Made by a program: the position numbers and the translations under genes
In this document: positions 3,056-49,560 of the stretch, one piece after another
Layout: every line of letters begins with the position of its first letter
Numbering within the stretch: the first letter of the stretch is position 1
Notes under the pieces: model-generated
Told to the model about the DNA's origin: nothing
Seen by the model: the letters and a program-made list of their open reading frames with translations, nothing else
Database searches by the model: none
NCBI GenBank assembly: GCA_963840855.1
Contig: CAWJBB010000055.1
Coordinates: forward strand, 12,227 to 76,226
Reading direction: 5' to 3'
DNA length: 64,000 nucleotides
From: an uncultured delta proteobacterium
GTDB lineage: Bacteria; Desulfobacterota; Binatia; UBA9968

Positions 3056-3133
3056 GTTCAATGTTCAAAGTTCAAGGTTCAACGTTCGGATTCGGAATCA
3101 CAACCTTTGAACGTTGAACCTTGAACTTTGAAC
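3056..3133. repeat. Inverted arrays of the heptamer GTTCAA(A/G) (repeat family B)
   Basis: gttcaatgttcaaagttcaaggttcaacg followed by tttgaacgttgaaccttgaactttgaac. Confidence 0.85.
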
Positions 3134-7948: not shown

Positions 7949-8023
7949 TGAACGCCGATCATCCTTCCGTGATTGATACACTTATATTTTGCATGCGCGC
8001 GCGACGGCGACCCGAACGATTCG

Positions 8024-8140
8024 GTTCAACGTCCAAAGTTCAAGGTTCAACGCCTGCCCTGAGCTTGTCGAACGGGTTCAAGGTTGGGAGATTGAACCCG
8101 AAATCCGAAACATTGAACTTTGAACATTGAACCTTGAACT
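8024..8140. repeat. Family B heptamer inverted array with a nested family C unit (cctgccctgagcttgtcgaacggg)
   Basis: gttcaacgtccaaagttcaaggttcaac ... cattgaactttgaacattgaaccttgaac. Confidence 0.8.
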
Positions 8141-11130: not shown

Positions 11131-11146
11131 CAGAGTATTTCCATTG

Positions 11147-12349
11147 ATGGAGGAAACCATGAAATGCGCCCCTGACGTTAACCGGCGGCGGTTTTTGACT
11201 CAATCCTGCCTGCTCGCCGCTAGCGTTCTGTTGCCTGAGTCCAGCGCCTTCGCACAAGCGCAAAGGCTGCGCGTCGGCCTGATGCTGCCGTACACCGGCA
11301 CCTATGCCCAACTCGGCACCGCCATCACCAACGGCTTCAAGCTCGTGGTGAGCGAGCGCGGCGGTAAACTCGGCGGCCGCGAACTCGAATACTTTACCGT
11401 GGACGATGAATCCGACCCGGCAAAAGCGCCGGAGAATACCAACAAGCTGGTGCAGCGCGATAAAGTCCATGTGCTGGTCGGCTCAGTGCACAGCGGCGTG
11501 CAGATGGGCATGGTCAAGATCGCCAAAGAAACCAATACGCTTATGATCATTCCCAACGCGGGGCTGGACGCCGCCACCGGCGCCCTGTGCGCGCCGAATA
11601 TTTTCCGCTCGTCTTTTTCCAACTGGCAGCCTTCCTATCCGATGGGCAAAGTGCTTGCCGACCGCGGCATCCGCAACGTTGTGTCCCTCGCCTGGAAGTA
11701 TGGCGCCGGCGAAGAAGCAGTGGCTGGTTTCACCGAGGGATTTATCAAGGCCGGCGGTAAAACCGTGCGCGGCTTGTGGATACCGTTTCCGAACGTGGAA
11801 TTCCAGGCGCTGCTTACCGAGATCGCTTCGATCAAGCCCGACGCCGTGTTCGTCTTTTTCGCCGGCGGCGGCGCTGCGAAGTTTATCAAGGATTACGCCG
11901 CGGCAGGGTTGCGCAAAACCATTCCACTGTTCGGCTCGGGATTTCTTACCGACGGCGTGCTCGATGCGGTCGATAACGCCGCTGAAGGGCTCGAAACCAC
12001 GCTGCATTACGCCGACGGGCTCGACAACAAACGGAATAAGGAGTTCCGCGCCGCATACATGAAAGCTTACAAGATCGAGCCTGACGTCTACGCCGTGCAG
12101 GGCTACGACGCGGCGCTGCTCCTTGCCACTGGCCTCGACGCCGTCAAAGGCGACGTCGGCAGGCGCAACGAAATGATCGGCGCTATGGAGAAAGCCAGGG
12201 TCGATAGTCCGCGCGGCACCTGGACGATGTCGAAAGCACACAACCCCATTCAGGATATCTATTTGCGCAAAGTCGTCGGCCGCGAAAACAAGTTCGTCGG
12301 CATCGCCCACAAGGCCCTCGCCGATCCGGCGCGGGGATGTAAAATGTAA
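11147..12349 (+). CDS. ABC transporter substrate-binding protein (LivK/aromatic acid type) with Tat signal
   Basis: NRRRFL twin-arginine motif; GLMLPYTGTYA, VDDESDP, DSPRG; next to benzoate-CoA ligase. Confidence 0.9.
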   Translation: MEETMKCAPDVNRRRFLTQSCLLAASVLLPESSAFAQAQRLRVGLMLPYTGTYAQLGTAITNGFKLVVSERGGKLGGRELEYFTVDDESDPAKAPENTNKLVQRDKVHVLVGSVHSGVQMGMVKIAKETNTLMIIPNAGLDAATGALCAPNIFRSSFSNWQPSYPMGKVLADRGIRNVVSLAWKYGAGEEAVAGFTEGFIKAGGKTVRGLWIPFPNVEFQALLTEIASIKPDAVFVFFAGGGAAKFIKDYAAAGLRKTIPLFGSGFLTDGVLDAVDNAAEGLETTLHYADGLDNKRNKEFRAAYMKAYKIEPDVYAVQGYDAALLLATGLDAVKGDVGRRNEMIGAMEKARVDSPRGTWTMSKAHNPIQDIYLRKVVGRENKFVGIAHKALADPARGCKM

Positions 12350-12359
12350 GACAGGTCGT

Positions 12360-12814
12360 TCACCACGAAGGCGCGAAGAACACGAAGGAAAAGCGGTAGG
12401 GTGTGAAATTCGACGAATTGTCGAATCGAGTTATTGGCTGCGCAATCGAAGTTCACCGGCAGCTCGGGCCGGGATTGTTAGAATCGGCCTACGAGCAGTG
12501 CCTGAGCTATGAACTCAATCAATCTCACCTACCGTTTCAAACGCAATGCGCGTTACCGGTGAAATACAAACAAATTGAGTTGGACTGCGCTTATCGTATC
12601 GACATGCTTGTCGATAATCAGCTGATTGTAGAGCTAAAAAGCGTGGATCAATTGTTGAAGATTCATGAGGCCCAAGTTTTAACGTATATGAAGTTGGCGA
12701 AAGTAAATGTCGGACTCCTGATTAACTTTAACGTCGATCTTCTCAGGAAAGGCATCAAGAGATTAGTTCTTTGATTCGAAATAACCCTTCGTGTCCTTCG
12801 TGCCTTCGTGGTGA
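12360..12814. mobile_element. Putative GxxExxY mini-element bounded by 29-bp inverted repeats (repeat family A)
   Basis: 12360-12388 TCACCACGAAGGCGCGAAGAACACGAAGG versus the reverse complement of 12786-12814 TCACCACGAAGGCACGAAGGACACGAAGG (27/29). Confidence 0.75.
12403..12774 (+). CDS. GxxExxY protein (predicted PD-(D/E)xK nuclease fold)
   Basis: VHRQLGPGLLESAYEQCL, YRIDMLV, IVELKSV, HEAQVLTYMK, GLLINFN; visibly AT-richer than flanking genes. Confidence 0.95.
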   Translation: MKFDELSNRVIGCAIEVHRQLGPGLLESAYEQCLSYELNQSHLPFQTQCALPVKYKQIELDCAYRIDMLVDNQLIVELKSVDQLLKIHEAQVLTYMKLAKVNVGLLINFNVDLLRKGIKRLVL

Positions 12815-12824
12815 GGCATTCATC

Positions 12825-13682
12825 ATGGTGCTTCTTATACAACTTTTGAACGCCGTACAGTATGGTTTATTGTTATTTCTGCTGGCGAGCGGCTTGACCC
12901 TGATCTTCGGCATCATGGGCGTGATCAATCTCGCCCACGGCAGTTTCTATATGGTCGGCGCCTACCTCGCCTACTGGCTCGCCAGGCACACCGGCAGCCT
13001 CTGGCTGGCGATTCCATTTGCAGTCGTCATCGCCTTCGGCATAGGTCTCCTGTTGGAGACGGCGATCTTCAGCCGCTTATACAAGCGCGACCATCTCTAT
13101 CAAGTGTTGCTCACCTTCGGCCTGATCCTGGTCTTCGAAGAACTGCGTAGCATTCTATTCGGCGATGAAGTCCATGGCGTGGCGATTCCGGCGCTGCTCA
13201 CCTCTTCGATCCCACTCACTGACACCCTGTCGTATCCGGTTTACCGGCTCTTCGTCACCGCGGTGTGCCTGGCGATCGCGGCCCTGCTGTATTTCGTGAT
13301 CCACAAAACCCGCGTTGGCATGATGATCCGGGCCGGCAACAGCAACCGCGAGATGGCCGCTTCGCTCGGCGTGAATATTCCCCTGCTGTTCGCCTTGGTC
13401 TTCGCATTCGGCATGGCCCTCGCCGCCTTCGCCGGCGCCGTCGCCGCGCCGATCTCGTCGGTATTTCCCGGCATGGGAAACCAAATCTTGATCATCTGCT
13501 TCGTTGTCGTCGTGATCGGTGGCATAGGCTCGATCAACGGCGCCATGATCGCCTCCCTCGCCATCGGCCTCGCCGACACTCTCGGCAAGGTAGTCGCGGC
13601 GGAATACTCCAGCGTCGCGGTTTACCTGGTCATGGCGGCAATTCTCTTGTGGCGCCCACAAGGCATCGCCAACAAGGCGTAA
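12825..13682 (+). CDS. Branched-chain-type ABC permease (LivH-like)
   Basis: GLTLIFGIMGVINLAHG, VVVVIGGIGS, LLWRPQG. Confidence 0.92.
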   Translation: MVLLIQLLNAVQYGLLLFLLASGLTLIFGIMGVINLAHGSFYMVGAYLAYWLARHTGSLWLAIPFAVVIAFGIGLLLETAIFSRLYKRDHLYQVLLTFGLILVFEELRSILFGDEVHGVAIPALLTSSIPLTDTLSYPVYRLFVTAVCLAIAALLYFVIHKTRVGMMIRAGNSNREMAASLGVNIPLLFALVFAFGMALAAFAGAVAAPISSVFPGMGNQILIICFVVVVIGGIGSINGAMIASLAIGLADTLGKVVAAEYSSVAVYLVMAAILLWRPQGIANKA

Positions 13683-30445: not shown

Positions 30446-30507
30446 AAGTTTTCGCGGATTGCGCAAATTTTCTGGGGATCTGGAATACTCGAACCTGGGG
30501 AATTGAC

Positions 30508-30665
30508 TCCCGCCAAGGCGCAAAGCACGCCAAGTTCGGAGGGAAGAGATGAATTATCTTGGAGAATTTTTCACCGTTATTTTCCGACCTTCGCGACCTT
30601 TGCGCCTTTGCGCGAGATATTCCGGCTTTTGGTTGCGGCTATGTCGCGCTGTGCTCTTTGTGGTT
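30508..30665. repeat. Family A inverted pair without cargo plus a GGTTGCGGC..GCGCT unit
   Basis: tcccgccaaggcgcaaagcacgccaag (30508-30534) versus cttcgcgacctttgcgcctttgcgcgaga (30589-30617). Confidence 0.8.
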
Positions 30666-33816: not shown

Positions 33817-34023
33817 TCACGCCAAGCCTGTCCAGAGCAAGTCGAAGGGACGCCAAGAATGCCAAGTGACGGGCCAAAACCCGTTATCCCGAGCGAATGC
33901 GAGGGATCTAAGAAAGATTTCTCCCGACGTTTATCCTGAGCTTGCCGAAGGGGTCGATGACAAAGCGTTCCTTTGCGCCTTTGCGCGAGATATTTCGGCT
34001 TTAGTTGCGGCTCGCCGCGCTAG
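33817..34023. repeat. Nested composite of repeat families A, C and D
   Basis: tcacgccaag[cctgtccagagcaagtcgaaggg]acgccaagaatgccaag ... gttatcccgagcgaatgcgagggatct ... ctttgcgcctttgcgcgaga. Confidence 0.78.
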
Positions 34024-41644: not shown

Positions 41645-41673
41645 CTTCGTGAACTTCGTGTCCTTCGTGGTGA
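41645..41673. repeat. Solo copy of the GxxExxY-flanking repeat (family A)
   Basis: cttcgtgaacttcgtgtccttcgtggtga, closely similar to 12786-12814. Confidence 0.8.
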
Positions 41674-49503: not shown

Positions 49504-49560
49504 TCCCGCAAAGGCGCGAAGGCGCAAAGTTAGGGGGCGTTAAAGGGGACGCAAACCTTT
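49504..49560. repeat. Solo family A arm followed by an AAAGG..CCTTT palindrome
   Basis: tcccgcaaaggcgcgaaggcgcaaag; aaaggggacgcaaaccttt. Confidence 0.65.

Follow-up and report, generated by a model that had tools for sequence, protein, structure and literature searches.

Intervening sequences (IVSs) that interrupt 23S rRNA genes, such as those of Coxiella and Leptospira, can carry a small open reading frame (ORF). The description of the Coxiella IVS (PMC4990558) gives it 444 nt, a 28-bp stem of terminal inverted repeats, and tandem GACAGAT heptamers upstream of an ORF for a four-helix-bundle protein. In the same account, the element is promoterless and transcribed within its host operon, RNase III cuts it, its ORF decays in some lineages, and it is called selfish, with its mode of movement unknown. 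A second described arrangement pairs a gene with dispersed repeats: in REPIN/RAYT systems, a single gene lies between inverted copies of a repeat that is also scattered between genes as gene-less hairpins. We describe a 455-bp unit that recalls both systems, in which a GxxExxY gene is enclosed by inverted arrays of a CACGAAG-type heptamer. It lies in a 64,000-nt stretch of DNA, hereafter the window, from an uncultured delta proteobacterium (GTDB lineage Bacteria; Desulfobacterota; Binatia; UBA9968; GenBank assembly GCA_963840855.1, contig CAWJBB010000055.1, positions 12,227 to 76,226). The genome holding the window is called G000 and its relatives G001 onwards; C-numbers denote contigs.

As read from sequence comparison, the boxed arrangement is a real, family-wide trait and the unit is partly mobile. 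Our preferred reading, held with moderate confidence, is that of a selfish, replaceable, IVS-like cassette: a minigene boxed by a hairpin, placed in operon spacers and accompanied by cognate hairpin relatives. The host is a five-gene liv-type ABC transporter operon in the order Peripla_BP_6 gene, cassette, two BPD_transp_2 permeases, and two ABC ATPases, and the cassette gene is on the same strand as the liv genes. The parts of the cassette and its two neighbors are as follows.

12360..12814, + strand: whole cassette (left arm, GxxExxY gene, and right arm), 455 bp
12360..12388, no strand: left arm, TCACC then three CACGAAG-type units, one every 8-9 nt
12403..12774, + strand: GxxExxY gene, 123 aa, GTG start, PF13366 and TIGR04256 matches
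12786..12814, no strand: right arm, three CTTCGTG units then GTGA
11144..12349, + strand: periplasmic substrate-binding protein gene (upstream host), Peripla_BP_6 at 1.3e-65
12826..13682, + strand: livH-type permease gene (downstream host), BPD_transp_2 at 1.4e-37

An inverted-repeat search of the window returns the two 29-nt arms as complementary at 27/29 positions (93%) and 397 nt apart; the chance expectation for such a pair in random sequence of window length is 1.3e-6. The window contains 10 copies of the motif CACGAAGG, where 2.4 are expected and 0/100 shuffles reach 10; 5 of these copies lie within the two arms. The packing is tight: 10 nt separate the stop codon of the binding-protein gene from the left arm, 14 nt the left arm from the GTG start codon, and 11 nt the stop codon of the cassette gene from the right arm. 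Each side holds a single arm and not a hairpin, so the gene forms the loop of one hairpin; in RNA folding of the cassette, the arms pair in both the minimum-free-energy and the centroid structures (z = -5.9). Over 33 nt, the right arm is identical to arms of gene-less hairpins, with five more 100% matches in G000 and others in relatives. Its end, GGTGA, together with the following GG, gives a purine-rich stretch 9-12 nt ahead of the livH ATG at 12826, which appears to be the start codon from a comparison of the junction with that of G003. Base composition sets the unit apart, since the GC content is 45.7% in the cassette and 44.1% in its ORF, about 10 points below that of the genome (56.2%).

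The likeness to the ORF-bearing 23S IVSs extends to a length of about 430-455 nt with one small ORF in the loop, a stem of about 28 bp from terminal inverted repeats with tandem heptamers at the 5' side, and, as proposed for the cassette, transcription within the host operon from no promoter of its own. The two differ in site, a 23S rRNA helix for the IVS and an mRNA spacer between protein genes for the cassette, and in cargo, an S23p four-helix-bundle ORF against a PD-(D/E)XK nuclease ORF (PF13366). Cutting by RNase III was shown for the IVS; for the cassette, whose stem is mismatched every 7 bp, it is proposed by analogy. Rfam, at gathering thresholds, places no RNA family in the window.

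The boxed arrangement recurs across many phyla in the GxxExxY family. We took 80 GxxExxY loci from one-genome-per-species contigs, 75 of them testable, and gave each the score of the best inverted match without gaps between its two 130-nt flanks; 279 windows of the same spacing, displaced by 700-1000 nt, served as controls. The median score is 16 at GxxExxY loci and 7 in controls. The control 95th percentile is exceeded at 54/75 loci, and a score of at least 14 is reached at 45/75 loci against 1/279 controls. Everywhere, the arms are built of tandem 8-9-nt units of one general type, C[AG]CN[AG]AG, whose variants are distributed as follows.

CACGAAG: Binatia and other 'delta' lineages, Kiritimatiellia, Brocadiia, and some Gammaproteobacteria
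CACAGAG: Bacteroidota, Planctomycetota, and Verrucomicrobiota
CGCAGAG: Dehalococcoidia and Acidobacteriota
CACGGAG: Spirochaetota
CGCGGAG: Botrimarina
CACCAAG: a Caulobacteraceae genome
CAGTGAG: Alphaproteobacteria
CGCAAAG: Flavobacteriales

Each GxxExxY protein lineage keeps its own arm type. Among the 67 loci where both neighbors could be called, the gene reads the same way as both (+,+) at 39 and against both (-,-) at 5; an in-frame stop codon is present in 4 of the 80 copies. These loci bear on the simplest alternative, that an ordinary small gene happens to lie between two unrelated intergenic hairpins. Many ordinary G000 genes do lie between two heptamer hairpins and look boxed in a genome-wide scan. 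Such genes have a hairpin on either side, whereas the cassette has a single arm on each; the excess at homologous loci far surpasses the 5% expected of controls, and the whole unit recurs at other loci. We therefore regard coincidence as very improbable.

Conservation within the arms is concentrated on the heptamers. At nine gene-bearing loci, the heptamer cores are complementary at 53/54 positions and the spacers at 17/35; in 18 hairpins, the figures are 101/105 and 18/54. Cores are kept while the 1-2-nt spacers are not, which indicates selection on a repeated, inverted heptamer and not on a smooth helix. To judge from these sequences, the pattern would suit an array of binding sites no less than a plain stem. 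Intergenic tandem heptamers are found elsewhere too, the STRR (short tandemly repeated repetitive) sequences of cyanobacteria being one such repeat. Another is the TAACTGA repeat of Beggiatoaceae, Cyanobacteria, and Bacteroidetes; according to the available part of its description (PMC4679880), it resembles the heptamer arrays in forming sets of 2-6 intergenic heptamers near start codons, in its patchy occurrence across phyla, and in having no known mechanism of transfer. It differs from the cassette arms in that the same text describes the repeats as direct (169 direct sets against one indirect), reports no inverted pairs boxing a gene, and names no associated protein family.

The boxed gene encodes a full-length member of the GxxExxY family. 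Its 123-aa product matches TIGR04256 (GxxExxY) at 3.6e-46 and PF13366 (PDDEXK_3), its sole Pfam match, at 4.1e-45; the scores of 156.3 and 153.3 bits exceed the curated cut-offs of 35 and 22, respectively. An alignment of 35 sequences from many phyla shows no variation at E27, D67, E77, K79, Q91, and Y95, which make up the PD-(D/E)XK set (E, D, ExK) plus a RecB-like QxxxY. The AlphaFold model (pLDDT 95.2) finds its best fold match in the core of Cas4 SSO0001 (PDB 4ic1), with a Foldseek E of 9e-3 and a VIA-align Z of 9.9 at a root-mean-square deviation of 4.3 over 100 residues, an alignment that covers only residues 51-161 of the 202 of 4ic1. Since other restriction-like nucleases and Hjc resolvases score Z 6-8, the fold class is clear and the nearest relative only suggested. 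We thus predict a minimal Cas4/RecB-like PD-(D/E)XK nuclease with a restriction-endonuclease-like fold. Cas4 SSO0001 shares with it the fold core and the E, D, ExK, and QxxxY residues; Cas4 is about 200 aa long with an extra domain, which the 123-aa protein is without, and the neighbors here are transporter genes, with no adjacent cas genes. A search of PDB sequences gave no homolog below E 0.07, and the sortase matches at E 0.07 in that search were set aside as chance level. The ratio of nonsynonymous to synonymous substitution rates (dN/dS) between cassette copies is about 0.07; such strong purifying selection, with an intact ORF, indicates that the protein is kept functional.

The family is very large: in a single search with 8,000 candidates, 7,999 reached E <= 1e-5, and metagenomes abound in close homologs (74-93% identical), whose source names come from different phyla. 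A classification paper that lists PF13366/PDDEXK_3 gives its function as unknown, and PMC8934634 notes a cas4 gene that was scored as a GxxExxY domain. We found no published link between GxxExxY genes and flanking repeats in the openly readable literature, a search that left most subscription journals and supplements outside.

Repeats of the cassette type are dispersed well beyond the gene. G000 holds 64 arrays of at least three CACGAAG-type units and 26 gene-less hairpins of about 76 nt with cassette-type arms; 25 of these share a conserved loop of 22-25 nt, which points to the copying of one master element and not to independent decay of cassettes. When the hairpin loop was compared by eye with the inner ends of the cassette, in search of a deletion like that of a miniature inverted-repeat transposable element (MITE), the few shared letters did not amount to evidence. 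Array counts in 41 related genomes, the unpublished G009 and G015 among them, reach as high as 96 and are 0 in 18 genomes, with 0-1 for reversed-pattern controls; each genome has homogeneous variants, which differ from those of other genomes. Only 3/131 hairpins lie inside ORFs, though long ORFs cover about 85% of the genome, and 11/127 lie between divergent genes, compared with 18% of all spacers. In other phyla, arrays of the sampled gene's own arm type are dispersed in 10/10 genomes.

The co-occurrence of gene and repeat invites a strict analogy with REPIN/RAYT, in which the GxxExxY protein would recognize CACGAAG arrays, move the cassette, and mobilize the hairpins in trans. The resemblance is close: a single gene lies between inverted copies of one repeat, gene-less hairpins of that repeat are scattered through intergenic regions downstream of genes, and gene lineage matches repeat type. 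Arms of GxxExxY genes are always of the C[AG]CN[AG]AG type and never of the abundant GTTCAA type, conserved cores with free spacers are what protein-binding sites would be expected to show, 17 of the 18 array-free relatives also have no GxxExxY gene, and the catalytic residues are invariant under strong purifying selection. The enzymes and repeats differ, however. A RAYT is a Y1 HUH enzyme (PF01797), whereas the cassette gene is neither HUH nor Y1, and the PF01797 genes of G000 lie elsewhere; a repetitive extragenic palindromic (REP) sequence is one imperfect palindrome, whereas the cassette arms are arrays of tandem heptamers. Hairpin families of the cassette type also occur in relatives where no GxxExxY gene was seen. 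Among the 11 genomes with at least 20 arrays, a cognate gene is present in three (G000, G007, and G029), only non-cognate GxxExxY genes in four (G001 with 85 arrays, G002 with 26, G016 with 42, and G018 with 37), and none in three; G015 was not inspected. The arrays of G033, one of the last three, are nearly all of one variant, which suggests spread without the gene, and co-variation of gene and arm is expected from simple linkage. Neither target-site duplications nor excision products were seen. We consider the strict analogy quite unlikely.

A RAYT acting from elsewhere in the genome as driver of the heptamer hairpins was also considered and rejected, given that the ten Y1-type genes have their own, different termini. 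These roughly ten Y1 (IS200/RAYT-like) genes, with frames of about 320 aa, lie on G000 contigs C85, C1, C82, and C40 and are flanked by a GGGTCAGGC..TGCATAAATG-type terminus and its inverse.

A second cargo family shows the same anatomy. In G000, most of the six loci of TIGR02436 genes, the four-helix-bundle family named '23S rRNA intervening sequence protein', are boxed by arms of tandem units, and the unit differs at each locus. From 104 listed matches in relatives, we took 20 loci from the top, except that the twentieth came from lower down to represent the other family; we passed over unpublished genomes, matches near the start of a contig, a single match that contained a stop codon, and the matches of G000 itself. 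A score of at least 14 is reached by 12 of these 20, against 1/73 controls. Their arms are GTTCAA-type 7- or 9-mers, which often box these genes in relatives, or GTGAG, GTAAGG, GACAGAC, and other units, and none is of the GxxExxY type. Three-unit GTTCAAN arrays number 410 in G000, where they are by far the commonest hairpin, and 390 in G001; the order's two other families have none. On the sequences compared, each cargo family comes with an arm class and gene-less hairpins of its own. The notion that any cargo drops into any hairpin loop is disfavored, as cargo family and arm class never mix.

Evidence on movement comes from the liv spacer of relatives and from other spacers. Within the genus, G004 has the whole cassette at 81% identity. 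G003 has instead a 51-nt palindromic AATTTCGA array, and G001, whose flanks are 95% identical, a gene-less CACGAAG hairpin with an identical right arm and the canonical loop, interrupted by other repeat modules. The cassette is thus present in one congener and replaced in two. In other genera (G005, G017, and G020), the spacer holds CGTTCAANN-type hairpins. Two details of these spacers stand apart: in G001 (C558, locus L002), a module of about 100 nt starting TGTCATGCCGGCATGGATTGCCGGC lies inside the interrupted hairpin, and in G020 (C86, locus L006), another ORF stands in place of the permease gene after the spacer hairpin, so that the operon junction differs.

Copies of the whole cassette are also found at further loci and in further genomes, with identities of 68-85%. 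A second CACGAAG-boxed copy in G000 (C58:10666-11087), decayed by 4-6 stop codons, occupies a histidine kinase/response regulator spacer; a hidden Markov model search missed it and a protein search found it. In the same spacer, G029, from another family, carries an intact cassette, and G016 and G002 carry a GxxExxY gene of another lineage, boxed by CGCAAAG arms. Identity between the G000 and G029 copies is 83%, against 70-73% for their flanking genes, and the decayed copy is 85% identical to that of G007 at yet another locus. Recurrence at other spacers, with copies more alike than their flanks, indicates that the unit moves or is exchanged between spacers, though rarely. Beside these cassettes, two further elements were noted: three extra solo left-type CACGAAG arms, in direct orientation and about 100 nt apart, upstream of the intact G029 cassette (C6:750550-750850, L011), and an element of about 240 nt in G000 (C17:5700-5970, L105 1727-1966) of which G001 has some 15 or more copies at 80-87% identity.

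Metagenome and RNA-library contigs add little on the state of the site in populations. A contig from a DNA metagenome, which agrees with the window at 99.8% over 561 nt and is near-identical in livH, joins position 12347 to 12840 and skips the cassette; since about 90 letters between the two sides are unread, it is only a hint of population polymorphism. Other contigs of that run cover the cassette at lower depth, and in some runs the cassette stretches without contig cover carry no information. Two RNA-library joints from 12387 to 12786 are not excision products: their sides are 26 letters long with other letters between, and they belong to gene-less hairpins from elsewhere. A single RNA-library contig bridges 12262-12412, where DNA carry-over is possible.

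The dispersal of the hairpins also admits a reading in which the genes are passengers. Here, REP-like intercistronic hairpins, which might serve at mRNA ends or in mRNA stability, would be spread or homogenized by host recombination, and the GxxExxY and four-helix-bundle genes would be cargo with a role in the cell or in defense. The spacer between binding-protein and permease genes is a classic REP position, as in malE-malF. Every relative has some tandem-unit hairpin in this spacer, whatever its family, and the placement of hairpins between genes, their depletion between divergent genes, and their persistence without a gene all suit this account, as do two unrelated cargo families with a common anatomy and the Cas4-like nuclease fold, together with the cas4 gene scored as a GxxExxY domain. 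Yet free capture should mix cargo and arm class, which do not mix, and the 25 conserved loops suggest one copied master element. The kinase/regulator cassette is more similar between families than its flanks are, and no defense-island context was seen among the genes neighboring the cassette. On these grounds, we judge the passenger account unlikely.

Several observations weigh against the cassette reading that we prefer. Boxing is incomplete, as 21/75 GxxExxY loci are not above control. The link to 23S IVSs is anatomical only: with Rfam, none of 40 homolog loci (of the 80) lies inside an rRNA gene, and a stem mismatched every 7 bp may be a poor substrate for RNase III. In the liv operon, the identity of the G004 cassette equals that of its flanks (about 80%), which indicates vertical inheritance at this locus and rare movement. 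No target-site duplication is visible at the five cassette copies that were read, and no excision product was observed among the metagenome and RNA contigs. Gene and repeat are not strictly tied either. A second arm type is shared in 5/10 other-phylum genomes, in about equal numbers in all four Dehalococcoidia and in large numbers in G042. No GxxExxY gene or remnant was found in G013 (96 arrays), G020 (21), or G033 (30) by a search sensitive to the decayed G000 copy, though gene absence is a soft call in metagenome-assembled genomes (MAGs) that are 94, 96, and 81% complete (81-99% among MAGs with at least 20 arrays). These three genomes indicate that hairpin families can persist and stay homogeneous without the nuclease. 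The four-helix-bundle family is unrelated to GxxExxY and has no recognized catalytic domain; the same gene-plus-hairpin pattern around its genes implies that a GxxExxY-type enzyme is not needed for the pattern. Finally, most genomes are fragmented MAGs that break at these very repeats, which renders presence and absence calls soft; across an 11-kb stretch with four hairpins in G000, for example, G001 contigs end or invert at the hairpins.

Against this background, several proposals of the sequence-only reading fared differently. It had proposed looking for inverted-repeat enrichment at the flanks of GxxExxY genes, co-variation of protein and repeat, dispersal of the repeat through the genome, and orthologous operons free of the gene; the 54 loci above the control 95th percentile, the lineage-specific arm types, the 64 arrays and 26 hairpins of G000, and the array and gene-less hairpin in the two congeners bear these out. 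Stable inheritance at the locus, which it named as a counter-argument, applies to G004 and not to the two congeners where the cassette is replaced. Its idea of an autonomous unit driven by an enzyme that is neither HUH nor DDE survives in part: the only gene is the PF13366 gene, and the cassette is discrete and replaceable, while the nuclease as spreader of the repeat is not supported. That the nuclease drives the repeat is weakened by arrays without the gene in three genomes and by the four-helix-bundle cassettes, and the claim of a wholly new element class gives way to the ORF-bearing 23S IVS, which has the same anatomy (PMC4990558). A classical pair of insertion sequence and MITE was likewise rejected: no target-site duplication was visible at the five copies read, and the only gene encodes a PD-(D/E)XK nuclease and not a DDE, serine, or tyrosine transposase.

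How might such a cassette be maintained and spread? In the mechanism that we propose, it would be transcribed by read-through of the operon, because a promoter would not fit inside the arms. Once transcribed, the arms could fold as a stem of three 7-bp helices, where RNase III could cut as it does in the 23S IVS. Spread and replacement would proceed by copying at the DNA level among sites where cognate heptamer arrays are already in place, through a homing-like process or gene conversion. The encoded nuclease, by its predicted activity, would probably make the initiating cut at or near the arrays; as a claim of its own, that the cassette's own nuclease is the initiating enzyme is possible rather than probable, and we hold it tentatively. 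Taken as a whole, this is to us the best explanation of the data, with the chances that it is right about evenly balanced.

Other repeat sites in the window complete the picture.

41645..41673, - strand: solo CACGAAG-type arm, three CTTCGTG units plus GTGA, no partner arm close by
30507..30616, no strand: gene-less hairpin of the CGCAAAG/CGCCAAG arm type, 34-nt arms, 82% complementary
49504..49529, + strand: solo CGCAAAG-type array, from reading of the sequence

The sequence-only reading had described the window with some accuracy. An AT-richer 123-aa GxxExxY gene within the operon of a substrate-binding protein and liv genes is confirmed by GC content and by the Pfam matches of the neighbors, as are the inverted repeats at 27/29 with three CACGAAG units per arm; the similar solo arm at 41645-41673 is indeed of the same unit type. 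Of the related arms that it listed, the site at 30508-30617 is a true hairpin (30507-30616) and that at 49504-49529 a solo array, with units of the CGCCAAG/CGCAAAG and CGCAAAG types, respectively, and not CACGAAG. The site at 33817-33990 was only loosely right: ACGCCAAG units and a CCTTTGCGCCTTTGCGCGAG end are present, but no inverted pair turned up in the repeat search. The second GxxExxY gene of G000 (contig C83) is boxed by arms of the same type as those of the hairpin at 30507-30616.

Two more observations concern repeats near these sites. Hairpins at 3063-3133 and 8023-8133 of the window have arms of 3-4 tandem GTTCAAN heptamers or CGTTCAANN 9-mers. Many CACGAAG hairpins in G000 are directly adjoined on one side by a conserved module, AACCACAAAGAGCACAAAG and then AAGAGGGGAC, which is also found at about 30640-30665 of the window; in its letters, the module resembles a solo left arm from a CACAAAG family, so that the repeats form composite units.

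These findings have implications for the GxxExxY family and for bacterial repeats at large. The tie to heptamer arrays across phyla gives a huge orphan family a concrete candidate substrate, and the shared anatomy suggests that ORF-bearing 23S IVSs may be a special case of a broader class of operon-spacer cassettes. More speculatively, GxxExxY cassettes, four-helix-bundle cassettes, thousands of gene-less hairpins, and ORF-bearing 23S IVSs might form one mobile-element superfamily, with inverted heptamer arrays as recognition sites and a Cas4-like nuclease that mobilizes the GxxExxY branch. We think this unlikely as matters stand; if true, it would entail a chemistry of transposition or homing not yet described for bacterial repeat families. 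A nuclease that recognizes a programmable heptamer array would be of interest both to researchers on mobile elements and to builders of nucleic-acid tools. Such a cassette class would also explain part of the load of short repeats that fragments metagenome assemblies of soil bacteria.

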